The notes below the pieces were generated by a model. That model saw only the letters and a list, made by a program, of their open reading frames with translations. It ran no database searches and had not been told where the DNA came from. DNA of 51,338 nt from Planctomycetaceae bacterium. Lineage in GTDB: Bacteria > Planctomycetota > Planctomycetia > Planctomycetales > Planctomycetaceae. The position numbers and the translations under genes were made by a program. The stretch spans positions 1 to 51,338 of the forward strand of contig JBDNFT010000660.1 in assembly GCA_041689695.1 (NCBI GenBank), in the 5' to 3' direction. Within the stretch, counting starts at the first letter, position 1. Each line of letters begins with the position of its first letter. Of the stretch, positions 4,001-51,338 are shown piece after piece.

Positions 4001-7000
4001 GTGTTGGCTTTCTGGAACGGCTTCCAGGCTTCGGCAAGGCGTTTATCTGCGGCCGTTTGAACGCTTTTCGGCGATGCTGGCTTTTTCGCAGTCGTCTTTG
4101 CAACCGCTGCGTCATGTGCTTTTTTGAGTTCGTCCTGAAGCTCAGTGCTTTTAGATTCCTCTTCGGCCAGCAGCTTTTCGAGGTCTTTAACCTTTGCTGC
4201 CAATTCATCAACGTCACTCTTCATTGCCTCCAGTTCTTTGCTGTTCGCCTTTCGTTTGTGGGCGGCTTCAAACAGAAGAACAGAACGTGCAAGCGAGTAG
4301 TCCCGTTCGATAACAGCTTTTCGGGCTTGCAGGTTCCGTCCTGCATCTGTCCCGCTCGTTTCCATCACATAAATCAGGGTTTCGGCTTCAATCCTCTTTA
4401 GTGAGGCTTCTCTTTCGTGAATCGCTTCTTTGACATCGTCGCCACTATTCGCAGCATCGATCTGGCCGCGTAATTCATCTTCGAGCATGTTGCTGAGTTC
4501 AGCGTTACGGAAGTTCAGTAGGTCGTTTTCCAGAGTAGTCGCGGATCTGGGGCTATCAACCAGCTCGCGAATCAGCTTATCGATTCGAACTCGACCATAT
4601 TCAGTTTTACCGATCTCCGCAGCCAGCTTCACGCTTTCCGCTCGACCCTGTTTGATTACAGGATCGCGTTCCGGCATACCGAGTTCAACGCGACGTTGAG
4701 CACTGAAGGCGTTCTTCGTGGAGAACTGCTTTTCCTGATCATCATCCTCTTCGTCTACGGCCGGCGGCAATTCATCTTTCATCGCGGCATCGAAACTGGC
4801 GTCGGTGCCTTCGTCTTCAAGACTAAACTCGTCTCCAAAGAAGTTCCATGTGTCGATCAGGTTCGCCCGGATCGAATTGACCGATGCGTCACCAAGACTT
4901 GCACGCAGTTCCTTTATCATCGCCTCGAACGTTTTGACACCCAGCTTGATTGTGCCGATCATTCGTTTCGCAACAGCGCGTGCAAGCTCGTCAGAAATCG
5001 GCAAGCCGGAACCAGCCGTCGGCTTTCGGAGTTCGGCCAAGATGATCGCGTTTTGCTTTGCGTTCTCTGCTTTTTGAGCATCGACCGCTTCTTTTGCTTC
5101 ACGGGCAGACTTCCGCAGCTCGGACTCGACTGGCGTTTCGACTGGCTCTGAATCTGCTTCCGTCGCAGGGTCCGGCGTCGCTGCAGGCGGTGTTGCTGTC
5201 GGGTTATCTCGCTGGAACATCATCTGGTTAACTTGAGCCAGTTGCGATTCCAGATTATCAAGCTCGATCTGTGTCTCAGATGGCTTGGCGAGAAACTCTG
5301 TGAGCTTCACATTCTCGGCTGTGCCCGACGCAATTGTTTTCTTTCTTAATGTAATTTGGCGTCGCAGGTCTGAGGATAGTGCCAATATGATGTCAACCAG
5401 CGAAGAGAACTTCGTTTCTTTGGTCTTATCAATCTGTTTGCCGTCCATCGTAATGACAGTGCCGGACGATGCTGTCCACTTTACAGAAGGGTTCCCTTTG
5501 TCGTCCTGCACGACTTTAGGACGCTCGCCGTAGTACAGATTGAATTGCACAGAACCATAATCAGCATCAGTGGCATAGTGATCAGATTCAGGGAATCCTG
5601 AAAACGCTTTAATCTTGCTATCCCGAGTCGCTATGCTGATCCTTTCACTTTCAGCATTAAACTTTTCTTTCAGCGACTTGTCAGCCTCAGCAATTGTGGC
5701 CAACTTCTTGCCGTCAACAATTATTGGGCCATCAGAATTGAAAGACACTTCAAGTTTATCTGCCAGCGCGGCTTGGCTCACATTGGTTGCATTAGCTCGT
5801 TCAATGTCATATTCACTGCCGCGAAGTCTGAACCGTTCTCGCGATCGTTGCTGATCCAGCGCCTCTGCTTCAAGACGCAATGAACGAATCTGGAATTCCA
5901 GTTCGCGTTGACGGTAGAACATTGGATCATCATTCATGGCCGCTTCCATGTCGGCCATTGACATCAGCGACTCGCTATACGGATCGTCAAATTCAGCGCC
6001 TGCTTTACCTGACAGTGCTTGTTCTGACGCTTTCGCCTTGCGTAGATTCATAGACATCAACGTGCCGTCGAGCGAGCGTTGCATCGCCATCACGAACGCC
6101 TGCACCGTCTCATTCAGGTTTCCTGACCTGATCATTCTCCCAAGGCGCTGTTCACGCTTTGACGGAACCATCGGAATATCGAGTTCCCAAATGGCTTTCA
6201 GTCGCTGCTGAACATTAATTCCGGTTCCGAGAGTGTCAGAATGCCCGATGACAATTCGAACCTCACCAGCGTTGACGCTGTCCTGAAACGCAAGTAGTTT
6301 TTCTGGCGTGCCGTTATGGTCATTGATTATCTGGACCTGATCCTTTGGGACGCCTTTCTCAATCAGCTTGCGTTTGATCTCGTTGTATAACCAACGGTCT
6401 TTCTTCTTTGTCGTCTTCACGGCTGCAACTGGAGTGTCGCCATCCGAATCGCTGTCTGAGTCATCATCTGAATCGTCGTCGGAATCGTCGCTCTCATCAA
6501 TTTCGAGCGTGACACCTTCACCGCGGGCAAAGTCTCTCAGCTTGGAAATATCTGTCCGGCCCGATGTGTCCGAAAAGATTAACTGCGTCAGGTTCTGCCC
6601 TGTCAACTCCTGATCGCCAACCTTCAGTGTTACGCCAGTGCCATCCTTGTAGTTCTGGTAAACGCCTTCAACCATTTTGTTGAGCTTGCTGCCAGGATCA
6701 TCAGGCGCAGAAGCATCCACCAGACGCACGTCGATGGCAGCGGCTTTCGCAGCACCATAAATCGTCACAGGAACCCATGAGTACGTTCGTTTGTCTTCAC
6801 CCTGCAGCCCTTTGTAGGCATCGTACAGATCAATGAAAAACTTTCCAAAATCATCGAACGCTGCGGACCTATCGACCATCACCAGAGTTTCTTTGCCGCC
6901 CTCCATCGTGGGGACTTTACCGCCGCCGTACTCTCTAATCTTGCCGTGCAACTCATCGCCAAGCAGAATATCCCATCCGGACTGAATGAACTGCGCAAGC

Positions 7001-10000
7001 TGGTGGCCGTTCTTAAACTTTGCCAATCGTGTTTTTCGCTGCAGTTTTCCGGCAGAGTTTTGTTCAAGCGAACTCATGACTTTTGCGAATGTCGCTACGA
7101 ACTGATCGAACGTCGTTACTCCAAATTCTTTAACGACGTCAGGAGCAACCATGTTCATCAGAAGCCACGATTCACCGAGCGTGTTTGTGATCGGTGTTCC
7201 CGTCGCCATGAATGTATTGCGGCCCTTATTGCCGTTCTGAATAAATCGCATTTTGATCAGCGCCGACAATGCCCGTCCAGAGACGTCGGTTGACAGACCT
7301 TTGATGGATCGATCGAGCTTCGTGACGAATGGCGGTTTCTTATAGTCGTGTGCCTCATCCAGAAACAAGGAATCGACTCCCATCTGCTCGAAGTACACGT
7401 CACTGTCCGTTCTCGCATTGACGCTTTTTATGATTTTATCCAATCGCTTTACGAGGGATTTGATCTGCTGCTGAATAGCCTTGACTGATGGTGATCCAGC
7501 CCCGTCTTCCAGTTGAGCTTCAAGCATTACGGCTTCGAGTTCTGCGATCAAACCTTCAACCATCTCCTGCTCAAGCGCTGGGTCATTCGGTAGTTTCATG
7601 TTGAACGTTGATTTCGCCATCACGATCGCGTCCCAGTTTCCAGTCGCGATGCGAGCCATGAACTTTGCGCGGTTTTCTGGATTCAGATCGTTTTTGCCTG
7701 CAACCAGCACTTTGGCAGCCGGGTACACTTCCGTGAACGTCCTCGCGAATTGACCGAGCGTTGAGTTCTGCACGACAATCAAAGGCTTCGTTGTTGTTCC
7801 CAGTCGCTTCATCTCCATGGCGATCGCGATCAACTCAGCCGTCTTTCCAGCGCCTACGCCGTGCGCGATCATGCCACGTCCTTCACGGATTGCCCGCCAG
7901 ATCGTGTTCTTCTGGTAAGGCCGCATTCGCTTGAGCCACAAATCAGACATCCCCGGAAACGTCAGGTGTTCTCCGTTGTATTGTGGTTTGACGTAGAAGT
8001 TCTTTTGCTCGTTGAACGCCTGTTCGATCAGGGGTATGGTCTCTTCGTTAGACTTAGACCACGCTTGAAATGAATCACGCATTTTTTCAGCTTTGATCTG
8101 CGCTGCCTGCGTTTGAGCCTCATCAGGAACTCTTTTCTTATGGTCGTTTGGGTCCGCCTTCGTAACACGGATCGTCGAGCCGTTCAGCGTCTTTGGAAGC
8201 AAGTCGGATAAGTGCATCCCAAGCGTGCCCCATTCGTTCTGAACATCCCGTGGAATACCCTCTGTGCGAACGCTCCAGATATCCACTTTGGCGTTATATC
8301 TGGCTGTTGAACCGTCCAGTTTCAGAACATCCGTTAACCAACGATTCACTACTTCAATGGGAACCCATGCCTGACCAAGACTCGGTGTGATTGAGTCGAT
8401 CGTCATCTTCGGTGGCTGAACCATCTTCAAGAGTTCGACATTCCGTTCAAACCTGCTGTCCCCCTCGGCTACCGACCGTTCTGCCGTTCTTAGTTTCGCC
8501 TGCACGTTTCCAGAAAGATAAGTGTCTGCTGGTTCCAGGAGACTCGTTTCGGGATCAAGTAAGACAGTACCGGAGTCCAGTAACTCGGCTTCAAGATCCT
8601 CTTCAGATGTTCCAGTCAGTTTGGACATCCACGGAAGATTAATTGCACCTCGCCAGGCCAAACTCATTTTGATAGCGTCTTCAGTTGTGTCGGCCGTCGT
8701 TGGAGCTGCGTCCGGGTTGACTGTTCTCTCTCTGAACACGTCAGCCTTGACATACCCCTTCGACAGAACACCGTTCTCAATGATTTCAACATCGTTTTCA
8801 ATGCCAGACGTGAAGAAGAAACCCGGATCGCGATGAAGCCAGTGGCTGTCTTTGTGATTCAGGGCACCGTGCGCCAGCCTGTAGGCATCGTAGGCGACAT
8901 TGAGCGCCTTCTGTGACTGTTTGTACTCATCCTGCGTTGCGTTATCGTTACGCATGTTTGCCAGATGAATCTCATAGGCATTTCGAACCTTCGTATAGGA
9001 AATCCCCTGCCTCATGGCGTTCGCGATTTTATCCGCCTTGGTGTCATCTTTCAGCTTTCGCGGCTTTCCATCCTTCGTCAGCAGCACGGCGTCTTTCAGC
9101 CATGACGGGGATACCCACTCGCCTTTGGATAACTCCTGAAGTTTTCCGCCGCGAAACTCGATCCTGCCCTCAACACCACTTGTCCCTGTGTCGAGTGATG
9201 GCATCAGCGGAGCGTTGTCTACTGTTGCTATGCCGGCAGGAAGATTCTTGACAGCCTTCTGAAGTTGATCGGCGAGGCTTGCGCCCTCAACTGGCATCAC
9301 CGTGTATTCCGTATCAGAATACTGCTTGCCCTCCATGGAGTGTGTGCCTATCACCATTTCAGGATGCGCGGCGAAATACTCATTGACCGTGATGTTTCCC
9401 TCTTTATCAACAAACGGTCCATTCTTCGTTTTCTTGGCTTTGTACGTGTACGTCCCGACGGACGAAAGATTCTGCCATGACGCACCCTTGAACGAGGAAC
9501 CGTCAGGCTTGCGGAAGAACATGATGTCTGTCGTCACTTCAGTGCCAGCGTTTGCCTTGAACGCAGTGTTTGGAAGTCGAATCGCCCCAACCAAATCCGC
9601 CTTGCTCGCCAACAGCGCCCGGTCTTCAGGATTCGCATCCATCGTGAAGTGAGTTGAGATTACTGCCGCCAGTCCACCTGGACGTAGTGAGTCCAGCATT
9701 CTCGCAATGAAATAGTTGTGGAGGTTCATCTCGCGGCCGTAGCGAGTCTTTGCGTCTGCCGGCCCGATCTGGTGGAAAGGCACGTTCGTCGCAGCAATGT
9801 CGATGGTTCCCGCTGGGATTGGAACTTCCTCGAACCCCTTCACATGAACATCAGCATCTGGATACAACTGTTTGACCATCTCACCAGTCAACGAATCGAG
9901 TTCGATCGCAATTACTTCAGAGTTGTTGGAAATACTCTCTGGCATCAACCCGATCAGACTACCGATACCGGCAGACGGCTCCATGAACCTACCGCCAGTG

Positions 10001-13000
10001 ACGCCCATTTGTTCAAGAGCGCCCCAGATTCCGTTGGTGATGACGTCGCGGCTGGTGAAGTGTGCATTGAGAACACTGGCCTTTGCTTTCTTCCACTCGT
10101 TCGGCGTTAAAGTCTCTTTCAAGAACCGATACGATTCGCCCCATTGTTTTTCCCATGCCTCAACACGGTTCCGAATTTCAATGATTGTCGAGTATTCGCC
10201 CTTCTTTTGGTACATCCGGGCTTTTTTGTACCACTCGTCATATTGATCCAGAAGTCCTGGACGCTCAATGAATTCCTTGCCCTTGTTCTCGTCGAACACA
10301 TGCTGAAGTGATCCCCAGCCTGTGTACCGCATCAGAACTTGTTGCTCCGCCGCTGTGGCTTGCCGATTGTCTTTCTGAATTTCCTTCAGGAGTGTGATGG
10401 CTGCGATGTTGGCCTTCAGTTTCGTAATGAGCCCATTTGGCGCAATCGTATCGCCGGGCTGGATCTTCAGGTTTCGCGGACCTGCCATTGTTCCCGAAAC
10501 TGTCTTAGCTGGCTTTCGGCTTCCTCGGTTAGAGGGTTTTCGTCCGGGCTTTGGTTTTGCTCCAGAACTCTGCTCTGTGCCAGTTCCCTCAGTGCTAGTT
10601 CCGGTTCCTTCGGATTCTGTTTCCGAAGTGCTGTCAGTTCCTCCAGGTAGCGAATCGCTGTTTGGTCTAGTTCCTGCTTCAGCTTCCCCGTCTTTAGAAG
10701 TGCTTCCAGCTTCCGGGGCCAGTGTTGTTCCAGATTCTCCAGACTCTCCGCCCATGCCCTCGTCTGATGAGGCTTCACCTTGGTCGCTTGTTCCATCGGT
10801 AGATACCTTTCTTGAAGTGAGTACGTCAGCCACGCTTCCTGCGTCATCGATTCCGGAATACTCCGGCAACCGCTTTAACGTCCGCCATGCCAGCTCGATT
10901 CCTTCTGCAGCATTCAGCGTGATCTCGTTTCCAAACTTATTCACCACAAACGCAACAAACTCGTCGAACTTCGCCACGCCATGATCCAGCGCAGCCTTTA
11001 CCAGTCGCGCGGAGGCTCGCATCTGTTCGCGAGTAAGACCCATTGGTGCTGTAAAGCCAAACGCCTTTCCAAAGTCGTCAGCGGCATCGTCCAGCTCTTT
11101 CTTAGTCTGCTCTGATCGCGACTTTGCTTCGTCCTTTTTCCTCTGAGATCTTGCCCCCGGCGATTCAATCATGTCGATTGCCCCGGATGGCTTTGGAGTC
11201 TTTGGTTTCCGCGTCTTTGCTTTACCCTTATTTTTTGGAGTCAACTGTTCTACCAAAAGATCAATGGCGTCTTTGTGGTTCGATGGCCTCACGTCTTCTG
11301 CTGGAAACCACTTACTGTTGACAAGAATTCCACGGCTGATCTGTATGCCCTGAACAGTCCCGGTTTCGCCACTGGAAATAATCTGAACCTTGTCGTCTAG
11401 GTTTAGGGCTGTCGCCTTTGGCTCCTGCGCTGGCTTTTGGCCAAGCAGTTCCTCGCGAAGCATTTGCTCCATAAGATCCTCTTGAGATGGTTCAGGCTCG
11501 CTCGCCTTAGCCTTGTTCTCCTGATCAATCTCAGATTGTGCCCTTGCCACTGCCGCTGGCTTGTGGAATTCGACCTGTTCTTCCAGATCTTTAATCCTCG
11601 CCATGTGATCTCTGTCGCCAGCCTTGTGTTTTGGATCGCGGTAGAGTGGCTGCAGTTCGCCGTAAAGCCTGTCGTGCTCAATAGCCGATGGCTTTTCTGC
11701 CTTGGCCTTTTGTTCAACAACCGGAAACGGCTCTGTTTTAGGCTCAGGCTTCGATTTTCCTGCCTTCGGTGGAACCGGCTTGCCGTCCTTGATCGGGATC
11801 TGAGAAACAAGGTACTTCGCCGGAAGAACGCCTGGCGATTTGGTGACGTCATCATGCTGGCGATATTCGCTGGCAGGTATGTCAAAGACGTTTGCGACAC
11901 CGGCCCTGTATCTCGGATCGTCCGTTTCCATTCCGGACTCATCGTCCACCACTCGCGCCGTACTCTGCAGCATCCCCTGTTTGGCGTAATTCAACCCGTT
12001 GTCGCGGATGCCTTTGGTCATTTCCTTAGACGAGACGTGAACTACACGAACCACGCCCTCTGGCTTTGGCGTCCATGTTTGTGCAGGCTTTGTTTTGGGT
12101 TCCGGCGTCCGCTCGAATCCGGAGACGTCTGTCCCGGAAAGCACGCTTCCATCGGCGTCGAACCGCACGCTGATGGTTCCCGAATTCTCGCTGATCCCAT
12201 CCAACACGCCTGTCCGACCAGTCACGGCCTGCGTCAAGCGGTCGCCAACATTGAATCCGCCGTCCTTGATGGACTGTTTGCGTTTCTCCGCGTCCGCTTC
12301 TCTTCGCTTCTCTAAACGCAGATCCGGCGATTCGATGACATCTGCTGTTCCTTGTGCTGGTGTTTGATCGCTCTTTGATATCGCGTATTCGTATTCTGCT
12401 TTTGTCAACACCCTTCCATTGCCGTCCGCGTCGTCCATTGAATACGACTTGATTTTCGGTGGATTGGCAATGATCTCACGGTATTCCTTGGCTTTGATTG
12501 CATCCGGGTGGTTTTCGTTTGCTGAGATACCCCACTTTTGCTTTCGCAAAGAGCCTAATTGCCGTGTAGCCTTATTGACCGCTGCTGTATCATCGTCTTC
12601 TGAGACAACAGGCTTTCGCCCTTCTGTGAGTTGGCGGTCTACTAGATCGCGACGAGTGATAACTTCACTCTTTCCTCCGACTGACCCTGTATAGTTCACC
12701 TTCTGATCGAGTGTCTTTTTGAACCTTGCTGCTTTGCTCGCCTCTTGAAGTGTCAACTTTGGCTTTGCTGCGTCTGCTTCGGCCTTGTCGGCATCAGCCT
12801 TATCGAATCCAGCCTTTCTTGCAATTTCATCTTCGTACTGTTGTTTGATCTTCGGGGATTCTTCTCTTGCTTGCTGCTCGGTATCAAACAGCATATCGCC
12901 ACCGCCTCGCGGCTGATCAGAACTTCGCACAGCAAACTTTTGGCCGCTACGCATATTTGCGATATAAACTTGGCCAACTTCTGTTGGAAGCTCTGACGTA

Positions 13001-15342
13001 AGTGGTGGAGTAGCCTGATCTGCCGGAGCGATTGCGTCTGGAGAAGAAAAGACTACGTTCCCGTCTGTTGACTTGCTTTCTGCCCAATCGCCCACTGCTG
13101 CCGAAGTGCTCTCGTCATCAACTGCCGGTATTTCAGGCTTCACCAACGGCTTCAGGATGCTTGGAACAACCGCTGGCTGCTCGCCGAACAGGTATTCCTC
13201 CATTGAATCCTTGGTCGCCTTTGACATCTTGCCAGGCTTCTCGCCACGGAATATGGTGGCGTTGAAATCGTCGCCTCGTGATTCCGCTTCCTTAAGTGCA
13301 TTTGACTGCAGCCAAGTCTCCGCACGCCGAAAAGTCATGCGAAGAGTCATGCCTGTCTTGCCTTCGGTTCCAGTGCTGACCTTCGGGAAAGGGGTTGTTG
13401 GTCGCCCTGAAGACGTTTGCACGACTTCATCCGATGACAGCATGTCGCCGACAACGCCGCGACGTGGCGTGTCTGCAGTGGCTTCTGGCGATGTCGCATC
13501 CTCCTGCGGAGCGATTGCGTCTGGAGAAGCAACCTGCCCCATGGCGGAATCCACCATGGGAGCAGCAGCGTCGGTCTTTAATACCCCGACTTCGGGGTCT
13601 TGGGTGGCGACTTCGGGTTCTTGGGCGACTTCGTCCCCTTCGGGTGCTTCGGTGAGCTTTTCATTTTGAGCTTTCAATCGGTTAAAGATTCTATCCTCTA
13701 CATCATCAGGCACATTGCCTGACATGTCTTCTTGCGGAGCAGGCGCTGGATCGAGCTCAGGCTTTCGCATTCCCAACGGATCGGGGTTGTTCAGGTTGTC
13801 TGCAAGTTTCTGACGATTCGCACGGTTCGGGTTGTCAACTGGCGGCATTCCATCGGCAATAGCAGCGTCGTAGTTTTGTTTAGATGGCTTCTTGATGAAC
13901 GCATCCACTGCTGGTCGAACAGGCGTGGTGGACGTATCTGGCGAGTCTGTTGCTCCTTGCTGCTCGTCTCGACGTCGCAGCATTTCATCGATCGGGATTT
14001 GCTGGATTTCACCGTCGTCTGATTTCTGCTGATCTTCTGGGAGGACAGGCAGTCGCTGATTACCACTTGACGCCAAACGTCCTACCTGTCGAGCGCCTTC
14101 CATCGTCCCCATCATTAACATCGTTTGCAAGACAGTGTCTTTCAGCACTGCTTTGTAATCGACATCCTGGTTCAGCATTTTCTCAGTTGCATAGCCGTGC
14201 AGGACTTCCGTCAATACCTCTTCAACCAATTCGGCGGACGTGTCTTTAGCCAGCGACTTGGCACCACTGGCCAATGCTTTCATGGATGCCGGGCTAGATG
14301 CGATCTTGTTCGCAATCGCCTGTCTCATCACACGACTTTCAATACCGCCAAGCCCTGGGATCTTGCTCATTATCGGCATGATGGATGCTTCAATTCCTCC
14401 CTGAATTGCTGCATACCTTGTCAACTCATCGCCGGCGAGTCCAGCTTCTTTACCTTCGTACTCCGCTCGGCTGTATTCCTGGCTCCCGAACTGGCCAGCC
14501 ATTACGGCCATACCAACAGCCGGAGTGCCAATCATTGACGCTGCAATGCCGGGCAACATTTGTGCTACGTTTTCTGCAACTCCTGCAAAAGCCTTGGAAA
14601 TTTCAGGATGTGCATATTTTTCGTCGCGGTGTTGAGCCATTTCAGACTCAGCGCCGGCCGCTTGTGCCTCAGCTTGGTCAGCAGCCTGTGTTGCCACGTC
14701 GCCATAGCCCAGTTTTTTAACGAGAGGCGAAGCCATTCGGGAGAATGGAGCAACAAAGCCAAGCGTTGATCGCTCCATGAACGCTCGCGTTTCTTTGCCG
14801 AGGTTCGATGGCTCTTTGCGAATGTTTTCGCGTCCCTTATCGAATGACGCCTGTCGTTGTTCTTGCTCTGTCCGTGCCTGCTCAGCAGCTTTGGTGGAAT
14901 CAACGCCTTCGGAGATCAGTTCTTCCGTGCGAGTGCGTGCAAGTGCTCGTTGCCTGAGGGGACTGGAAGCAACGGCGTTCTCGAATTCCATCCGCGCGGG
15001 GATGTCTGCGATTGCTTCGTCGATAGGTTTTTCGATGCCGTCAACTTTTACGGTTGACGGAGCAGGCTTCTGTTTTTCAAACTGCGGCCCCTTCCTCAGA
15101 AGCTCTTTCCGGTTTTGTCTCCCCTCAACAGATCCAGGATCTTCACCCTTCGAAGCATCTTGCTGTTTTGCTTCGTTGATCAGAGCGTTTTTTCGTTTGT
15201 CGATTTCGTCTTGGTACTTCTGCTGCTGTTCCTTTCGCGCAGCATTTTGACGCGCAGACTCTTCAGCATCTTTTATTGCTTTTTGTCTCTGGATTTCTTC
15301 TGCTGTCGTAATTGGACCGTATCGTTGATACCCATCAGCCAT
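1027..15342 (-). CDS. giant polyvalent virion/ejection-type protein with DNA N6-adenine methyltransferase and SF2 helicase core (DarB-like)
   Basis: Uninterrupted 4,771-codon ORF. Its ATG at 15342 lies 1 nt from the stop of the upstream gene. Motifs: EPSAGIGSL (aa 1788), NVPF (aa 1853), GVGAGKT (aa 2495), DEAH (aa 2662), QRLGRMIRSG (aa 3065). Both termini are hydrophobic. Confidence 0.9.
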   Translation of the reverse strand: MADGYQRYGPITTAEEIQRQKAIKDAEESARQNAARKEQQQKYQDEIDKRKNALINEAKQQDASKGEDPGSVEGRQNRKELLRKGPQFEKQKPAPSTVKVDGIEKPIDEAIADIPARMEFENAVASSPLRQRALARTRTEELISEGVDSTKAAEQARTEQEQRQASFDKGRENIRKEPSNLGKETRAFMERSTLGFVAPFSRMASPLVKKLGYGDVATQAADQAEAQAAGAESEMAQHRDEKYAHPEISKAFAGVAENVAQMLPGIAASMIGTPAVGMAVMAGQFGSQEYSRAEYEGKEAGLAGDELTRYAAIQGGIEASIMPIMSKIPGLGGIESRVMRQAIANKIASSPASMKALASGAKSLAKDTSAELVEEVLTEVLHGYATEKMLNQDVDYKAVLKDTVLQTMLMMGTMEGARQVGRLASSGNQRLPVLPEDQQKSDDGEIQQIPIDEMLRRRDEQQGATDSPDTSTTPVRPAVDAFIKKPSKQNYDAAIADGMPPVDNPNRANRQKLADNLNNPDPLGMRKPELDPAPAPQEDMSGNVPDDVEDRIFNRLKAQNEKLTEAPEGDEVAQEPEVATQDPEVGVLKTDAAAPMVDSAMGQVASPDAIAPQEDATSPEATADTPRRGVVGDMLSSDEVVQTSSGRPTTPFPKVSTGTEGKTGMTLRMTFRRAETWLQSNALKEAESRGDDFNATIFRGEKPGKMSKATKDSMEEYLFGEQPAVVPSILKPLVKPEIPAVDDESTSAAVGDWAESKSTDGNVVFSSPDAIAPADQATPPLTSELPTEVGQVYIANMRSGQKFAVRSSDQPRGGGDMLFDTEQQAREESPKIKQQYEDEIARKAGFDKADADKAEADAAKPKLTLQEASKAARFKKTLDQKVNYTGSVGGKSEVITRRDLVDRQLTEGRKPVVSEDDDTAAVNKATRQLGSLRKQKWGISANENHPDAIKAKEYREIIANPPKIKSYSMDDADGNGRVLTKAEYEYAISKSDQTPAQGTADVIESPDLRLEKRREADAEKRKQSIKDGGFNVGDRLTQAVTGRTGVLDGISENSGTISVRFDADGSVLSGTDVSGFERTPEPKTKPAQTWTPKPEGVVRVVHVSSKEMTKGIRDNGLNYAKQGMLQSTARVVDDESGMETDDPRYRAGVANVFDIPASEYRQHDDVTKSPGVLPAKYLVSQIPIKDGKPVPPKAGKSKPEPKTEPFPVVEQKAKAEKPSAIEHDRLYGELQPLYRDPKHKAGDRDHMARIKDLEEQVEFHKPAAVARAQSEIDQENKAKASEPEPSQEDLMEQMLREELLGQKPAQEPKATALNLDDKVQIISSGETGTVQGIQISRGILVNSKWFPAEDVRPSNHKDAIDLLVEQLTPKNKGKAKTRKPKTPKPSGAIDMIESPGARSQRKKDEAKSRSEQTKKELDDAADDFGKAFGFTAPMGLTREQMRASARLVKAALDHGVAKFDEFVAFVVNKFGNEITLNAAEGIELAWRTLKRLPEYSGIDDAGSVADVLTSRKVSTDGTSDQGEASSDEGMGGESGESGTTLAPEAGSTSKDGEAEAGTRPNSDSLPGGTDSTSETESEGTGTSTEGTGTEQSSGAKPKPGRKPSNRGSRKPAKTVSGTMAGPRNLKIQPGDTIAPNGLITKLKANIAAITLLKEIQKDNRQATAAEQQVLMRYTGWGSLQHVFDENKGKEFIERPGLLDQYDEWYKKARMYQKKGEYSTIIEIRNRVEAWEKQWGESYRFLKETLTPNEWKKAKASVLNAHFTSRDVITNGIWGALEQMGVTGGRFMEPSAGIGSLIGLMPESISNNSEVIAIELDSLTGEMVKQLYPDADVHVKGFEEVPIPAGTIDIAATNVPFHQIGPADAKTRYGREMNLHNYFIARMLDSLRPGGLAAVISTHFTMDANPEDRALLASKADLVGAIRLPNTAFKANAGTEVTTDIMFFRKPDGSSFKGASWQNLSSVGTYTYKAKKTKNGPFVDKEGNITVNEYFAAHPEMVIGTHSMEGKQYSDTEYTVMPVEGASLADQLQKAVKNLPAGIATVDNAPLMPSLDTGTSGVEGRIEFRGGKLQELSKGEWVSPSWLKDAVLLTKDGKPRKLKDDTKADKIANAMRQGISYTKVRNAYEIHLANMRNDNATQDEYKQSQKALNVAYDAYRLAHGALNHKDSHWLHRDPGFFFTSGIENDVEIIENGVLSKGYVKADVFRERTVNPDAAPTTADTTEDAIKMSLAWRGAINLPWMSKLTGTSEEDLEAELLDSGTVLLDPETSLLEPADTYLSGNVQAKLRTAERSVAEGDSRFERNVELLKMVQPPKMTIDSITPSLGQAWVPIEVVNRWLTDVLKLDGSTARYNAKVDIWSVRTEGIPRDVQNEWGTLGMHLSDLLPKTLNGSTIRVTKADPNDHKKRVPDEAQTQAAQIKAEKMRDSFQAWSKSNEETIPLIEQAFNEQKNFYVKPQYNGEHLTFPGMSDLWLKRMRPYQKNTIWRAIREGRGMIAHGVGAGKTAELIAIAMEMKRLGTTTKPLIVVQNSTLGQFARTFTEVYPAAKVLVAGKNDLNPENRAKFMARIATGNWDAIVMAKSTFNMKLPNDPALEQEMVEGLIAELEAVMLEAQLEDGAGSPSVKAIQQQIKSLVKRLDKIIKSVNARTDSDVYFEQMGVDSLFLDEAHDYKKPPFVTKLDRSIKGLSTDVSGRALSALIKMRFIQNGNKGRNTFMATGTPITNTLGESWLLMNMVAPDVVKEFGVTTFDQFVATFAKVMSSLEQNSAGKLQRKTRLAKFKNGHQLAQFIQSGWDILLGDELHGKIREYGGGKVPTMEGGKETLVMVDRSAAFDDFGKFFIDLYDAYKGLQGEDKRTYSWVPVTIYGAAKAAAIDVRLVDASAPDDPGSKLNKMVEGVYQNYKDGTGVTLKVGDQELTGQNLTQLIFSDTSGRTDISKLRDFARGEGVTLEIDESDDSDDDSDDDSDSDSDGDTPVAAVKTTKKKDRWLYNEIKRKLIEKGVPKDQVQIINDHNGTPEKLLAFQDSVNAGEVRIVIGHSDTLGTGINVQQRLKAIWELDIPMVPSKREQRLGRMIRSGNLNETVQAFVMAMQRSLDGTLMSMNLRKAKASEQALSGKAGAEFDDPYSESLMSMADMEAAMNDDPMFYRQRELEFQIRSLRLEAEALDQQRSRERFRLRGSEYDIERANATNVSQAALADKLEVSFNSDGPIIVDGKKLATIAEADKSLKEKFNAESERISIATRDSKIKAFSGFPESDHYATDADYGSVQFNLYYGERPKVVQDDKGNPSVKWTASSGTVITMDGKQIDKTKETKFSSLVDIILALSSDLRRQITLRKKTIASGTAENVKLTEFLAKPSETQIELDNLESQLAQVNQMMFQRDNPTATPPAATPDPATEADSEPVETPVESELRKSAREAKEAVDAQKAENAKQNAIILAELRKPTAGSGLPISDELARAVAKRMIGTIKLGVKTFEAMIKELRASLGDASVNSIRANLIDTWNFFGDEFSLEDEGTDASFDAAMKDELPPAVDEEDDDQEKQFSTKNAFSAQRRVELGMPERDPVIKQGRAESVKLAAEIGKTEYGRVRIDKLIRELVDSPRSATTLENDLLNFRNAELSNMLEDELRGQIDAANSGDDVKEAIHEREASLKRIEAETLIYVMETSGTDAGRNLQARKAVIERDYSLARSVLLFEAAHKRKANSKELEAMKSDVDELAAKVKDLEKLLAEEESKSTELQDELKKAHDAAVAKTTAKKPASPKSVQTAADKRLAEAWKPFQKANTFFSIEGAAKMLPEFIELAGAHIEKGVESFSTFVDRLSKHFGKKPNPENIPVLQEAWDTAFAARGPANISRITDKIDSVVPDTIGKAARDLHAYVIERDSLDASAAGREAAVDAVHEILMRFLPDITIEETARAMSGIGIYSELSEDEIDVIRRDQKAQLLLLEQLKGWEQAAIDEANEPGTGKPPLATGQERAPSSDEQRLIRRNVTAAKKASGISTQTEGQLKSALDAAKTGVRNRIADLDNAIKTRTKIIGSKTTLKTDAELTKLREDRDALQKRYNAAFGKNELSDEQRLNLAEKALDRAITQMEADNDAGKLYKDDPKPRVTSPAIEAKRATLDALKASREELRLNSGEAQVRSDAAYERTLTKRLAELTRRLADGDVMPAAKKPERTLTKTMLIEMKQIDDMQNRMSKTRKAWIFKNRNAVYKLLVKGPIAALNMWRKGLTTIDQSLIGRQGYLLGITHPILYAKAAQKAFASNPLKAKSIFPSEQDVFDTEAELNSDPQWVRMEKIAKLAVTSIGDGMKSEEGNLDQTEWFNNLWGVGGAERAGSAFINTQRRLVFRELVSKFATSREGEGLSISNAELRIIANIVNVGSGRGSLGRYMNALEAATAVLFSPRWWMSRLQWWSGQPVWHNSTWFRGEGASWAVRRLAAKEWGKQAAAQMAVMSFVVAGLTAAFGPPGDDEEWDHETDWRSLNFGSIRIGNSHIDMTAGLGQHLSFLIRMISGQQKDRWETRDIDRLGVFGRYFRGKLAPATSAVVDLAVRETMMGEDVATRKWLLKRITPLIGQDVRKAIEEEGVELGSVLSMMMFFGLSARTYEARTNKRSDAANEVRVLKHQGQKEKIQQVLLKHLEYAAAAEATEKLRTALPDEQAGLQKVIDGEDSPELSDAIQKEMYDIVLNASGRVMGEKKPHEKREFSGSEDKGRMVSRSLVPEIIPNVADAIRIYNEAYKAANKSLVEKGKDNTFRLKPEVAAGRSRIKSLYKSGE
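1483..2745 (-). other. Trp-rich hydrophobic C-terminal module of the giant ORF (approx aa 4200-4620)
   Basis: WWMSRLQWWSGQPVWHNSTWF and a TM-like AAQMAVMSFVVAGLTAAFG. No named family recognised. Confidence 0.4.
6010..7940 (-). other. SF2 (SNF2/DEAD-like) helicase domain of the giant ORF (approx aa 2470-3110)
   Basis: Walker A GVGAGKT at 7840-7860, DEAH at 7348-7359, motif VI QRLGRMIRSG near 6121-6150. An acidic D/S insert separates the two lobes. Confidence 0.8.
9340..10400 (-). other. N6-adenine DNA methyltransferase domain of the giant ORF (approx aa 1650-2000)
   Basis: AdoMet-binding motif I EPSAGIGSL is encoded at 9955-9981. Catalytic motif IV NVPF (an NPPY/F variant) is at 9775-9786. 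Confidence 0.8.
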
Positions 15343-45014: not shown

Positions 45015-45020
45015 TCTCAA

Positions 45021-45058
45021 CACATCGCCCTGCCTCGCGTGAGGCAGGGATCTTTCAG
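45021..45058 (+). repeat. family-1 hairpin cassette, copy 1
   Basis: CCCTGCCTCgcgtGAGGCAGGG (45028-45049) followed by ATCTTTCAG. Confidence 0.8.
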
Positions 45059-45092
45059 TAACATTTGGCCCGCAAGGCCTTGGAGAATTAAG

Positions 45093-45517: not shown

Positions 45518-45622
45518 ATGATTCCTGCGAATCGACGAACAATCTATCTTCCCACACGCAACCCTGCCTCGCGTGAGGCAGGGATCTTCCTTCAATCACC
45601 CAAACGAGGACAACGACGATGA
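45518..45622 (+). CDS. possible 34-codon upstream ORF read through the family-1 hairpin
   Basis: AAGGA SD 5 nt upstream. Its stop overlaps the ATG of the 45619 gene (ATGA). Translation MIPANRRTIYLPTRNPASREAGIFLQSPKRGQRR. Confidence 0.3.
   Translation: MIPANRRTIYLPTRNPASREAGIFLQSPKRGQRR
45553..45618 (+). repeat. family-1 hairpin cassette, copy 2
   Basis: Hairpin at 45562-45583, then ATCTTCCTTCAATCACCCAAACGAGGACAAC. Confidence 0.8.
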
Positions 45623-45836: not shown

Positions 45837-45897
45837 ACACATCGCCCTGCCTCGCATGAGGCAGGGATCTTCCAACCCCCAATCAAGGACAACGAAA
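45837..45897 (+). repeat. family-1 hairpin cassette, copy 3
   Basis: CCCTGCCTCgcatGAGGCAGGG (45845-45866), then ATCTTCC...CAATCAAGGACAAC. Confidence 0.8.
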
Positions 45898-46689: not shown

Positions 46690-46766
46690 CGAGTCTGGCA
46701 GTCTGCGGGCTGCCAGCGTCGGGTAATTTCACCCGGGTTCAAGACTCTTCTTCAGGATCAAATGCA
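46690..46766 (+). repeat. family-2 structured leader, copy 1
   Basis: CTGGCAGtctgcgggCTGCCAG, then CGGGTaatttcACCCG, then TTCAGGATCAAATGCA-ATG. Confidence 0.8.
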
Positions 46767-47360
46767 ATGAAAACCACAACACTAATACGTGATATCGTCG
46801 GCTTGCGTGCAAGCCGACGTCTTCCGGCCGGACTCCCAGACGTCGTTCGATTGTCAACGGACGAAATGATCGAACGCGGATTGACTCGCGTCCAGGCTGC
46901 GAGATTACGAGCATCGCTGAAGCTGGCAATCGAGATCAATGAGCCCGAACACGCCTACGAGCGCGAACGTATCGTTTCCCCAACGTCAGCCATGCGATAT
47001 TGCCAGCGCGAGTTTGCCACGATGGCACGACATTCGGCACAGGAAGAATTCTGGATCGTGACGTTGGATACGAAGAACCAGCCGATCAACAAACACCAAA
47101 TCACGGTTGGCACGCTTCGCAACAGCCTCGTTCATCCGCGCGAGGTTTTTCGGCCGGCAATTGCTGATGCCGCGAACTGCATCCTTGCGATACACAATCA
47201 TCCGAGCGGTGATCCAACTCCCAGCGATCAGGACATAAGTGTCACAAAACGGCTTCACGAAGCCGCCGAGATTATCGGAATCCCAGTCGTTGACCACATC
47301 ATTGTGGCCGGTGAGAAGGCGCTTAGCATACAGGAATGGCTAGGCGCAACAGGACGCTGA
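46767..47360 (+). CDS. radC: RadC-like JAB/MPN domain protein
   Basis: HNHPSGDPTPSDQDISVTKRL (JAMM-like HxHPSG) and EEFWIVTLD. Confidence 0.85.
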   Translation: MKTTTLIRDIVGLRASRRLPAGLPDVVRLSTDEMIERGLTRVQAARLRASLKLAIEINEPEHAYERERIVSPTSAMRYCQREFATMARHSAQEEFWIVTLDTKNQPINKHQITVGTLRNSLVHPREVFRPAIADAANCILAIHNHPSGDPTPSDQDISVTKRLHEAAEIIGIPVVDHIIVAGEKALSIQEWLGATGR

Positions 47361-47365
47361 GATTG

Positions 47366-47443
47366 TTCGAGTCTGGCCATCTGCGGGTGGCCAGCGTCGA
47401 GCAATTTCGCTCAGTTCAGTCTTTACTTTCAGGATCAAATGCA
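47366..47443 (+). repeat. family-2 structured leader, copy 2
   Basis: CTGGCCAtctgcgggTGGCCAG (compensated stem), then GAGCaatttcGCTC, then TTCAGGATCAAATGCA-ATG. Confidence 0.8.
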
Positions 47444-47902
47444 ATGACTACAAAGAACCAGCTATCACTCGTTACACGGCGAGTTCGCGAACTACGCAAG
47501 GCCATGAAGGAATCAGAGATTGCTGAACGTGCCTACTTAGCGCGAGCGTGCAAGGAGACTCGTGACAATCTCCCAAACATTGTGTTAGACATGACACGCA
47601 TGGCGCTGGCAGGTCTGTTGACACCGGAGATCCTGTCCCAGGTCAGGCATAGCAGTTCGACAATAACAATCGAGATCGAACGCGAAGATCTCGTGAAGTG
47701 GCGGAAAATCGGCCATCTGTCTGCGACTTACAAATCATTCGACAAAACCGATGCTGATGGCGTGAATTGGATCAGGGTGACTGTGGAGGTCCAATTCCTG
47801 ACTGCGATTCAAATTCGATATCGAAGACAACTCCCAGCCAGTTGCAGCTGCAAGGTCACTGACGAGATCAGCACATACAAAACATTGACATGCAACACCT
47901 GA
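47444..47902 (+). CDS. hypothetical early protein
   Basis: ATG at 47444 directly after the family-2 leader. Confidence 0.55.
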   Translation: MTTKNQLSLVTRRVRELRKAMKESEIAERAYLARACKETRDNLPNIVLDMTRMALAGLLTPEILSQVRHSSSTITIEIEREDLVKWRKIGHLSATYKSFDKTDADGVNWIRVTVEVQFLTAIQIRYRRQLPASCSCKVTDEISTYKTLTCNT

Positions 47903-48235: not shown

Positions 48236-48312
48236 TTCGAGTCTGGCAGTCTGCGGGCTGCCAGCGTCGAGCAATTTCGCTCAGTTCAATATCTACTTTC
48301 AGGATCAGAACA
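48236..48312 (+). repeat. family-2 structured leader, copy 3
   Basis: CTGGCAGtctgcgggCTGCCAG, then GAGCaatttcGCTC, then TTCAGGATCAGAACA-ATG. Confidence 0.8.
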
Positions 48313-48759: not shown

Positions 48760-48826
48760 CACAACCCACCCGGCCTCAACGTGAGGCCGGGATCTTTCAG
48801 CAATCACACACCAAAGGAACTGCGGA
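48760..48826 (+). repeat. family-1 hairpin cassette, copy 4 (compensated stem)
   Basis: CCCGGCCTCaacgtGAGGCCGGG (48769-48791), then ATCTTTCAGCAATCACACACCAAAGGAAC. Confidence 0.8.
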
Positions 48827-49294
48827 ATGAATTCTCCCCACCGTGATGTATCTGCGATTGCCATGCAGGTAAATGAGTATTTGCTGTTGAATGGAGTGAA
48901 TAAGAAGCTTTTGCTTCTTACAGTCAATTGGTCACACTGCTGGCAGCGGTTGGTTGTTATCGCGAATCGGAAAACAAGGCGGTACACGATTGCCAGCGGG
49001 GACGATGCACGGCTGAGTAAAGCTCAACTTAAACTGGTTCTGAAAGGCGTGCGTCTTGAAATAGAAAAGTTCATAAAAGAGCATGATGTTCGTCTCAGGA
49101 GATACGAGTCCGAGATGGCTGAAGAGGCGGAGTTCATGCGTTTCGTCTCAATTGCGAATGAGGCCGGTCTGAGGACGGCAGTTTACGACAAAGGTAAGTT
49201 TTCGATTGCATGTAGTTTCGATCAAGCGCTCAGGATTGTGCGCTTGATCGCAGATAACCGGGACAGTGTTTTTACGGAGCCTGCTTCAACGTGA
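48827..49294 (+). CDS. hypothetical early protein
   Basis: 155-aa ORF. Its 3' end overlaps family-1 copy 5. Confidence 0.55.
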   Translation: MNSPHRDVSAIAMQVNEYLLLNGVNKKLLLLTVNWSHCWQRLVVIANRKTRRYTIASGDDARLSKAQLKLVLKGVRLEIEKFIKEHDVRLRRYESEMAEEAEFMRFVSIANEAGLRTAVYDKGKFSIACSFDQALRIVRLIADNRDSVFTEPAST

Positions 49295-49331
49295 GGCCGG
49301 GTTCTTCCACCAGCCAATAAGGACAATCAAA
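49279..49331 (+). repeat. family-1 hairpin cassette, copy 5 (degenerate)
   Basis: CCTGCTTCaacgtGAGGCCGG has one mismatch and one wobble. It is followed by GTTCTTCC...CCAATAAGGACAATC. Confidence 0.65.
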
Positions 49332-50075: not shown

Positions 50076-50103
50076 TTGACGTGCTTAATTCAGTCGTTAG
50101 ATT
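50076..50103 (+). promoter_or_regulatory. sigma70-like promoter upstream of the small membrane ORF / tRNA / csrA cluster
   Basis: TTGACG, 16-nt spacer, TAGATT. Preceded by TTCCGAAAAACGTACGAAAC boxes. Confidence 0.4.
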
Positions 50104-50120: not shown

Positions 50121-50291
50121 ATGTTGATCTTTGAGGTTTTGGATTTCGCGATGATACTGGCGTTCTGTTTGGGGATGCTGATGATCGTGATTGAATGCGT
50201 GGCCACGATGGTCGATCACTTCTCGACGTCGAGGCTGAGCCAGAAAGACTTCGCGAGGATGATTAAAGAGAACGAGCCCGGAGACCCTTGA
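50121..50291 (+). CDS. 56-aa membrane protein (hypothetical)
   Basis: Hand-translated as MLIFEVLDFAMILAFCLGMLMIVIECVATMVDHFSTSRLSQKDFARMIKENEPGDP. GGAG SD. Below the ORF-track cutoff. Confidence 0.45.
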   Translation: MLIFEVLDFAMILAFCLGMLMIVIECVATMVDHFSTSRLSQKDFARMIKENEPGDP

Positions 50292-50325: not shown

Positions 50326-50397
50326 GGCTGGGTAGCTCAGCGGTAGAGCGTCATGGTGAAAACGTGAAGGTCGCAGGTTCGATTCCTGCCCCAGCCT
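50326..50397 (+). tRNA. tRNA-Phe (anticodon GAA)
   Basis: Hand-folded cloverleaf. Acceptor GGCTGGG/CCCAGCC, D arm GCTC-AGCGGTA-GAGC, anticodon arm TCATG-GTGAAAA-CGTGA, T arm GCAGG-TTCGATT-CCTGC. No encoded CCA. Confidence 0.8.
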
Positions 50398-50441
50398 ATG
50401 ATGAATTTCGTTTCAATTTAGTATCACGGAGGATTGTTTAT

Positions 50442-50669
50442 ATGTTAGTTCTAAGTCGCAAAGTGAATGAAGAAATCACCATTGGTGACGACATTCGAAT
50501 CATGGTGATCGAGGTTCGGGGAGACAAAGTCCGCATTGGCGTTGATGCCCCAAAAGACGTTCCAATACACCGAAAAGAAATTTTCGGCGCAATCAAGGTG
50601 GCTGCGGATGCGGCGATGGCGGCGATGGCGGCCGCTCAATTAGAAACGGATGGTGGGAAAATGGAATAG
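50442..50669 (+). CDS. csrA: carbon storage regulator CsrA/RsmA homologue
   Basis: MLVLSRKVNEEITIGDDIRIMVIEVRGDKVRIGVDAPKDVPIHRKEI aligns along its length with E. coli CsrA. GGAGGA SD at about 50428. The track ORF start at 50307 runs through the tRNA. Confidence 0.9.
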   Translation: MLVLSRKVNEEITIGDDIRIMVIEVRGDKVRIGVDAPKDVPIHRKEIFGAIKVAADAAMAAMAAAQLETDGGKME

Positions 50670-50720
50670 TTCATCGCTAGCAGTTTCGGGGGAGTCTGTG
50701 CAAAACGCGCCCCCACTTGT

Positions 50721-50793
50721 CGCAGCGTGGAGAAGTTGGAATCTCACTCGGTTCATACCCGAGAGGTCGCCAGTTCGAATCTGGCCGCTGCCA
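50721..50793 (+). tRNA. tRNA-Met (anticodon CAU), initiator-like
   Basis: Hand-folded: CGCAGCG-TG-GAGA-AGTTGGAA-TCTC-A-CTCGG-TTCATAC-CCGAG-AGGTC-GCCAG-TTCGAAT-CTGGC-CGCTGCC-A. Has a C1xC72 mismatch, A11:U24 and three G/C pairs closing the anticodon stem. No encoded CCA. Confidence 0.75.
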
Positions 50794-51134
50794 ATCCCAG
50801 ACATAGTTTAACCGTCTTGATTTGAGTGCGCATTAGAATCAAGTCAGAACAAGAGTTAGTAGCTCTAGGTCCGAGTATTGAGTCTCGGTGTGCGGGAATG
50901 AGGCGCAGCTCTGGTGAGCAACAAGATCCATAACCTTGGAGGGGCGGTTCGGATCCAGCACAGCCAAGTCAATGAAAAATGGCGGTCTCCCTGTCATGCC
51001 TTAAATGCTCCAGGGGTGAATCGGCACGGTTCTGTCGCGATGAACCAACCGATCGAGGATTTCGACGTAAGCTAATTCTCACGCGGCTAAAAAATGAGGC
51101 CGCAATTTTTTTGACAGAATGATGAGGTGCTTAA

Positions 51135-51338
51135 TTGATCGAATACGAAATCATCGCGGTTCCCCGACCGCAGGGCAGCAAGAAACACGTCGGTCGGGGA
51201 ATCATGGTTGAGGTGTCGAAGCACGTCGCGAACTGGCGGGCCTTCGCGCGGATGTGCGCTGTCCCAGCGATGGCAGGTCGCCCTGTTGTTCACAAGCCGA
51301 ATGCGTTAGTCGTCGAGGTGGCGTTTTATTTTGACCGA
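51135..51338 (+). CDS. rusA: RusA-like Holliday junction resolvase (5' part, runs off the window)
   Basis: TTG start 5 nt after GAGGTG. IIAVPRPQGSKKH...NWRAFARMCA...ALVVEVAFYFDR fits the phage RusA N-terminal pattern (P.PKgRPR...; v.l.i.fy..rp). Confidence 0.55.
   Translation, partial: MIEYEIIAVPRPQGSKKHVGRGIMVEVSKHVANWRAFARMCAVPAMAGRPVVHKPNALVVEVAFYFDR

Follow-up and report, generated by a model that had tools for sequence, protein, structure and literature searches.

A csrA gene between tRNA-Phe and an initiator-like tRNA(CAU) gene: a probable accessory translation cassette of a phage

CsrA proteins and tRNAs encoded by phages are each thought to manipulate or protect translation in the infected cell. 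In the 51,338-nt contig JBDNFT010000660.1 of the Planctomycetaceae bacterium assembly GCA_041689695.1 (the whole stretch analysed, hereafter the window), the two are joined in one compact cassette, in which csrA lies between a tRNA-Phe(GAA) gene and the gene of a tRNA with a CAU anticodon, hereafter tRNA(CAU) (positions 50326-50793). The cassette belongs to a phage whose host group, probably Planctomycetes, has been little studied. An earlier note on this DNA had suggested that the arrangement is a dedicated module for taking over or timing translation. Does the phage couple its CsrA to its tRNAs, or do these genes simply stand side by side? The best explanation, to which we give a probability of about 0.6, is that the locus is a self-contained accessory translation cassette of a phage probably infecting a planctomycete, and that its functions are neighbours in a moron-like slot rather than a co-evolved machine. 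All of its parts are genuine and each is of a known kind, and nothing shows that they act as one dedicated unit.

The order tRNA-Phe, csrA, tRNA(CAU), with gaps of 44 and 51 nt, was borne out by ARAGORN, Rfam, Pfam and the sequence itself. Both cloverleaves were accepted by ARAGORN, which found exactly these two tRNA genes in the window, and by the Rfam tRNA model RF00005, whose gathering score is 29. The bounds of tRNA(CAU) were 50721-50793 in Rfam and one base wider on each side (50720-50794) in ARAGORN. A 120-aa open reading frame (ORF) from 50307 was an artefact reading through the tRNA-Phe gene. The core of the cassette comprises the following features, in which SD denotes Shine-Dalgarno.

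50326-50397, + strand: tRNA-Phe(GAA), found by ARAGORN and by Rfam RF00005 (67.6 bits, full model); CCA not encoded
50398-50441, + strand: 44-nt csrA leader with the SD sequence GGAGGA (two overlapping GGA) 8 nt before the ATG, from the sequence and leader analysis
50442-50669, + strand: csrA, encoding a 75-aa RNA-binding protein of the CsrA/RsmA family whose C-terminal tail is Ala-rich, from PF02599, PHROG and PDB matches
50670-50720, + strand: 51-nt spacer between csrA and tRNA(CAU), from the sequence
50721-50793, + strand: tRNA(CAU), of the initiator type in its acceptor and D arms and of the elongator-Met type in its anticodon arm, found by ARAGORN and Rfam (56.7 bits); CCA not encoded

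The csrA product scored 86.2 bits with the Pfam family PF02599 (cut-off 27; positions 1-52 of 53) and also matched phrog_9500 'CsrA-like regulator' (8.7e-22) and the CsrA/RsmE chains 1t3o, 5dmb and 2jpp in the PDB (E 5e-16). Its near-colinearity with E. coli CsrA, pointed out in the earlier note, was confirmed by a gapless alignment with 50% identity over 52 residues. The RNA-binding residues L2, L4, R6, V40, R44 and I47 were conserved across the alignments, and the gapless E. coli alignment contained the full set in β1 and β5 established by mutagenesis in E. coli (L2, L4, R6, R/K7, V40, V/I42, R44 and I47). Among 23 aligned CsrA sequences, M1, L2, R6, V30, G33, A36, P37, R44 and E46 were invariant. 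Judged from these alignments, the phage protein is a full-length CsrA whose RNA-binding surface is intact, and given its sequence similarity to the solved CsrA/RsmE chains it may be a GGA-binding homodimer. Its nearest named relatives were found in Planctomycetes (65-75% identity over the domain), which indicates that csrA was probably captured from a planctomycete-like host lineage.

Phage-encoded CsrA/RsmA proteins have been described before, and a role in host manipulation has been suggested for them (Campa et al. 2021, PMC8450108); CsrA relatives were encoded by 304 IMG/VR contigs. The window protein resembles the homologues of phages and mobile elements (PMC8450108; phrog_9500, phrog_5527) in being a small full-length CsrA very like that of the presumed host lineage, and in its carrier, a phage whose host group also encodes CsrA. 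It differs from them in its own Ala-rich tail and in the tRNA genes lying within ~50 nt on both sides, an arrangement present in none of 85 other viral CsrA loci. A phage-like contig of 75.9 kb (L010, JGI Ga0613805_000073) encodes a CsrA 71% identical to that of the window, along with UvrD helicase, HNH, UDG, PD-(D/E)XK and AAA_24 genes; no tRNA gene adjoins its csrA, and a tRNA-Ile(GAU) lies 5.5 kb off.

The attribution of the cluster to a phage, rather than to flanking host chromosome, held up. Upstream of the cassette are genes for a large terminase TerL (phrog_2, 1.3e-17) and a primase (prim-pol/DUF3987; phrog_3022, 8e-44), as well as RadC and a small serine recombinase found by profile searches; the DNA of the gene just downstream matched RusA-like resolvase genes of Gordonia phages in blastn. 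No cellular housekeeping gene was found among the window ORFs scanned. With phage hallmarks on both sides of the cassette, the contig is phage-like in its gene content, and the best reading places the cassette in the early/replication arm. For the structural and small early ORFs, searches with Pfam and PHROG matched almost nothing, in keeping with a phage whose host is poorly sampled; this host is probably a planctomycete, as suggested by the relatives of CsrA. The window showed no terminal repeat, and its joined ends completed no convincing RusA-like ORF. It corresponds to the JGI contig Ga0105055_10000795, and the same cassette was found on three further contigs (L001, L002 and L248), in at least three metagenome datasets. 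Since L002 and L248 come from other samples, the cassette is not an assembly artefact or chimera.

What kind of tRNA accompanies this csrA? In bacterial initiators, formylation is determined by a 1:72 mismatch, A73, G2:C71, C3:G70 and A11:U24 (PMC9976931, PMC4611024); the lack of a Watson-Crick 1:72 pair is the main determinant (PMC4611024, PMC9976931), and A73, G2:C71, C3:G70 and G4:C69 are minor ones (PMC9976931). Initiators also possess the D-stem pair A11:U24, three G:C pairs (G29-G31:C39-C41) and a Cm32-A38 pair, and G29:C41 contacts 16S rRNA (PMC4611024). The sequence and Rfam alignment of tRNA(CAU) gave C1xC72, flagged as non-standard by Rfam, together with G2:C71, C3:G70, A73 and a D stem GAGA/UCUC with A11:U24. 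With the CAU anticodon, G30:C40 and G31:C39, these features are shared with the E. coli initiator (metY/metZWV), from which tRNA(CAU) differs in having CxC instead of CxA at 1:72, A4:U69 instead of G4:C69, C29:G41 instead of G29:C41, the loop UUCAUAC (U32 U33 CAU A37 C38) instead of CUCAUAA, and no encoded CCA. The hallmarks listed in the earlier note, namely the C1xC72 mismatch, A11:U24 and three consecutive G/C pairs at 29-31:39-41, are thus all present, except that the first of the three pairs is inverted, so that the canonical G29-G31:C39-C41 run is broken and the C32/A38 loop is absent. The anticodon arm as a whole (CUCGG-UUCAUAC-CCGAG) differs little from that of ordinary elongator-type tRNA-Met genes.

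Of the E. coli tRNAs compared, the initiator metY shared 68% identity with tRNA(CAU), against 56% for each of metT (elongator) and ileX (tRNA-Ile2). The tRNA-Ile2 reading was rejected on the low identity to ileX, the unpaired 1:72, 4:69 A:U and 5:68 G:C; tRNA-Ile2, with E. coli ileX as the example, is marked by the TilS determinants, namely a paired 1:72, a D stem of the C11:G24 type and C4:G69/C5:G68. An attP fragment was likewise rejected, as the gene is a complete tRNA and no integrase adjoins it. A chimera of an initiator acceptor stem and an elongator anticodon stem-loop is fully formylatable (PMC4611024). From its sequence, tRNA(CAU) would be initiator-like and open to formylation, although its anticodon loop has diverged, and it would probably function as an initiator. 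Apart from A4:U69, the claim of an initiator stands for the acceptor and D arms; it fails for the anticodon arm (C29:G41, U32/C38).

A search pattern made from the anticodon arm and T loop of tRNA(CAU), which yielded the loci L014-L157, matched at least 120 IMG/VR contigs. When IMG/VR and genome matches were pooled, 60 unique sequences with A11:U24 were obtained, sharing the loop UUCAUAC. Position 1:72 was paired in 3 of the 60 and carried C-A, U-U, G-A, C-C, A-A, C-U or other combinations in the rest, whereas pairs 3:70 to 7:66 were intact in all 60 with abundant covariation. G2:C71 was conserved in 53, C3:G70 in 57 and A73 in 55 sequences, and the 29:41 pair was variable (U:A 30, G:C 15, A:U 14, C:G 1). 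Because the 1:72 mismatch was kept through so much sequence change, it is a selected feature and not a sign of decay. Among 185,579 species genomes there were only 24 matches. They came from unrelated phyla, with members in Clostridia, Alphaproteobacteria, Bacteroidota, Actinomycetes and one metagenome-assembled genome (MAG) of Pirellulaceae, so that the class is not the housekeeping initiator of any sampled lineage. A related tRNA was absent from E. coli genomes, for which the PGAP annotation was looked up as a proxy classifier. In 61 of 93 loci the class member was the only tRNA.

By these sequence comparisons, tRNA(CAU) is a member of a large, widespread and mainly phage-borne class, and the recognition of this initiator-like class with an elongator-type anticodon loop is the most useful by-product of the analysis. 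Similar tRNAs in GenBank phages are mostly unannotated. Prophages with a single tRNA-Met/tRNA-fMet(CAU), such as Sinorhizobium phiLM21-like ones, have already been published (PMC12429752). The window phage resembles these temperate phages in carrying one CAU tRNA among very few tRNAs, and differs in its host lineage and in the tRNA-Phe and csrA that accompany the gene. Also within the class is an initiator-like CAU tRNA (U1xC72) on a 12-kb contig binned in the Pirellulaceae MAG (L146, 75-1108), where it is one of 10 densely arrayed tRNA genes. The array resembles those of phages and may be a hint that this class is in use among planctomycete phages.

Could tRNA(CAU) nevertheless be an elongator tRNA-Met or a decaying copy that, with tRNA-Phe, supplements the host pool next to an unrelated csrA? 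In its favour, ATG makes up 318 and Phe codons 378 of the 11,457 codons of the phage, and the absence of G29:C41 and C32/A38 fits an elongator, as does the near-identity of the anticodon arm to that of elongator-type genes such as L036, in which 1:72 is paired and position 11:24 is C:G. What speaks against it is the rest of the molecule. An elongator tRNA-Met would have a Watson-Crick 1:72 pair and pyrimidine11:purine24, and tRNA(CAU) has CxC and A11:U24, unlike E. coli metT, ileX and the elongator-like class members with C11:G24. The mismatch, unpaired in 57 of 60 class members while the other acceptor pairs co-vary, points to selection, it keeps initiators from elongation in E. coli (Seong and RajBhandary 1987, cited in PMC9976931), and overall identity favours the E. 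coli initiator over the elongator. We therefore regard an elongator or decaying tRNA-Met as unlikely. We are similarly doubtful of a more ambitious proposal, in which the class would be a widespread, phage-specific hybrid methionine tRNA with a formylatable initiator top and an elongator-type anticodon arm, perhaps selected for initiating translation while evading nucleases that cut the anticodon loop of tRNA-fMet. In the window phage, a single tRNA-punctuated transcript would then supply this tRNA along with the captured CsrA, and with them both initiation capacity and the repression of host mRNAs. Phage tRNAs with altered anticodon loops have been proposed to evade host anticodon nucleases (van den Berg et al. 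2023, PMC10264068). Both window tRNAs deviate there as well, tRNA(CAU) by U32/C38 and tRNA-Phe by G32; phages are reported to avoid encoding tRNA-fMet in general (PMC10264068), whereas the window phage carries an initiator-like CAU tRNA. The tRNA-Phe has the GAA anticodon and a canonical cloverleaf, with U73 as its discriminator. Both G32 and U73 are unusual for bacterial tRNA-Phe.

The coupling of csrA with the tRNA is the crux of the dedicated module, in which the phage CsrA would repress or time early mRNAs through GGA-containing SD leaders and work together with the phage's own initiator tRNA. The tight packing of the three genes in one apparent transcription unit favours it, and so does a GC-rich viral contig (L006, IMGVR_UViG_3300034073_003351), on which a tRNA of the canonical initiator type (642-716; A1xA72, GGG:CCC stem, loop CUCAUAA), with the acceptor stem GCAGCG of the window tRNA, lies 2.3 kb upstream of a 48%-identical CsrA homologue (3001-3150). 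This is the only other co-occurrence of CsrA and a CAU tRNA that was found, and a single case. CsrA was present in none of 144 loci anchored on this tRNA type (~1.1 Mb). Around viral CsrA genes (85 loci from the 304 IMG/VR contigs, ±5 kb, 754 kb), any tRNA was found in 6 and a CAU tRNA only in L006, and among 52 metagenome CsrA loci the sandwich occurred in the identical phage only. In favour of the module, too, GGA stands at -10 to -13 in 13 of 17 early genes, but this is the SD position. The motifs quoted in the earlier note exist, lie at that position and belong to repeated intergenic leader families, but A(A/C/G)GGA(T/C) was not enriched in the window (132 observed, 136.8±11.4 expected). 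Most early leaders hold a single GGA, which is mostly base-paired in the predicted folds and not in a hairpin loop. As the GGA is the SD itself, is not enriched and is rarely exposed in a loop, it does not speak specifically for a control of phage genes by CsrA; these leaders are, from their sequence, ordinary SD sequences as in any SD-led gene set. The idea of a dedicated takeover or timing module was thus not sustained, and we consider it improbable. Just as improbable is that the sandwich is a relic of capture, csrA having been taken from a host chromosome with a neighbouring tRNA. Cellular csrA genes sometimes have tRNA genes behind them, so such a neighbourhood is not special in itself: in E. 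coli (L238), serV-argVYZQ lies 315 nt downstream of csrA, and on the planctomycete-like chromosomal contigs L007, L008 (6001-6448) and L013 (6001-6477), whose CsrAs are among the closest relatives of the phage protein, a tRNA-Glu(UUC) follows csrA at 160-200 nt. The phage cassette shares with these contigs and with E. coli alaS-csrA-serV-argVYZQ a tRNA gene after csrA on the same strand, but its tRNAs differ, with one on each side of csrA, being Phe and CAU and not Glu. Moreover, the CAU class is mainly phage-borne and very rare in genomes, and other planctomycete csrA loci or paralogues (L239, L243 and L244) have no adjoining tRNA.

Two families of repeats were noted among the early leaders. 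A GC-rich intergenic hairpin, CCCTGCCTCGCGTGAGGCAGGG followed by ATCTT, recurs between early genes at 45020-45060, 45554-45594, 45837-45877, 48762-48802 and 49280-49312, and several copies precede a conserved leader ending in ACGAGGACA or CAAGGACA ahead of the ATG; these hairpins could be terminators, processing sites or regulatory sites. The second family extends over up to 72 nt at 90% identity (46690-46760, 47366-47447 and 48236-48307), contains the hairpin CTGGCAGTCTGCGGGCTGCCAG and ends with TTTCAGGATCA just ahead of start codons. An identical 20-nt stretch that includes the ATG (46751-46770 and 47428-47447) points to 46767 and 47444 as the true starts of two genes, in place of those called by JGI.

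The sandwich is restricted, in the sequences compared, to near-identical copies of one phage lineage, and is most simply read as an accessory gene slot. For the accessory cassette that we favour, the following course can be envisaged. The cassette would be transcribed as a single RNA from the promoter-like site to the intrinsic terminator, and RNase P and the 3' tRNA-processing enzymes would excise both tRNAs, thereby freeing a short monocistronic csrA mRNA with the 44-nt leader. Since the SD of this leader is GGAGGA, autoregulation of csrA is possible and conceivably acts through it. The host CCA-adding enzyme would finish both tRNAs, because neither gene encodes CCA. MetRS would charge tRNA(CAU) by its CAU anticodon and A73, and formyltransferase would formylate the charged tRNA, which may then serve as a spare initiator and, by analogy, with its altered positions 32 and 38, as a poor substrate for tRNA-fMet anticodon-loop nucleases. 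The two tRNAs would supplement or protect translation, and the phage CsrA dimer would bind GGA mainly in host mRNAs and retune host post-transcriptional control, in line with earlier proposals (PMC8450108). Both phage CsrA and phage tRNA-Met/fMet are already published, and the locus as it stands reveals no new mechanism. It is a handy construct for comparing phage CsrA on host and phage mRNAs, for initiation by loop-altered initiator-like tRNAs and for resistance to tRNA-cleaving defences.

Several points weigh against this picture. At 4:69, tRNA(CAU) has A:U in place of the minor formylation determinant G4:C69, and without G29:C41 and C32-A38 its selection for the P site by the host ribosome and IF3 could be poor. 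We know of no VapC-like nuclease in the host, and the escape of the window tRNAs from nucleases is argued by analogy. The promoter-like site at 50076-50103, which the earlier note had placed ahead of the cluster, was recovered with 9 of 12 consensus matches, but the consensus scan found 2 such sites in the region where 5.6 were expected by chance, so the site is no better than chance and only a candidate. The similarity of CsrA is the sole clue to the host. No diverged relative of the phage was found with a primase query of IMG/VR, CsrA queries of IMG/VR and metagenomes, or tblastn of the fetched loci: the CsrA queries gave identical copies only, followed by relatives of at most 69% identity without those tRNAs, and tblastn of all fetched loci against the window gave isolated TerL-type matches only.

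The core of the cassette is bracketed by the following features.

50076-50103, + strand: sigma-70-like promoter candidate (TTGACG, 16 nt, TAGATT) ahead of the cassette, from the consensus scan (9/12 matches)
50121-50291, + strand: 56-aa ORF with a hydrophobic N-terminal half and GGA at -13, from the ORF list; the JGI records call a gene here
50794-51082, + strand: ~290-nt, apparently non-coding spacer from tRNA(CAU) to the terminator, with only short ORFs
51083-51112, + strand: intrinsic-terminator-like hairpin (6 bp, 9-nt loop) followed by AAUUUUUUU, from the sequence; present in the minimum-free-energy and centroid folds
51135-51338, + strand: start of a RusA-like Holliday-junction resolvase gene, truncated by the window edge, from blastn and the JGI gene call

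The ORF at 50121-50291, the first gene in the cassette, agreed with the membrane ORF described ahead of the cluster. It matched no family in Pfam and PHROG searches, and its sequence points to a possible small membrane protein. The hairpin at 51083-51112 was missed by a terminator scan limited to loops of 8 nt; with the U-run behind it, it is the probable, predicted end of the cassette transcript. The possibility that the spacer at 50794-51082 holds a further RNA or a CsrB-like sponge was considered and rejected: an Rfam search of the spacer gave no match at E<=1, its folding energy did not differ from that of shuffles (z = -0.57), and ~4 GGA in ~340 nt, counted by eye, were at or below chance. 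The decamer GTGCTTAATT occurs at 50081-50090 and 51127-51136, in both promoter-like regions that bracket the cassette; it was rejected as a phage promoter, with 2 copies only and a frequency not above chance. At the other end of the window, a single ORF of 4771 aa (1027-15342, - strand) takes up 28% of its length, and the predicted product is presumably a giant virion or tail-associated protein.

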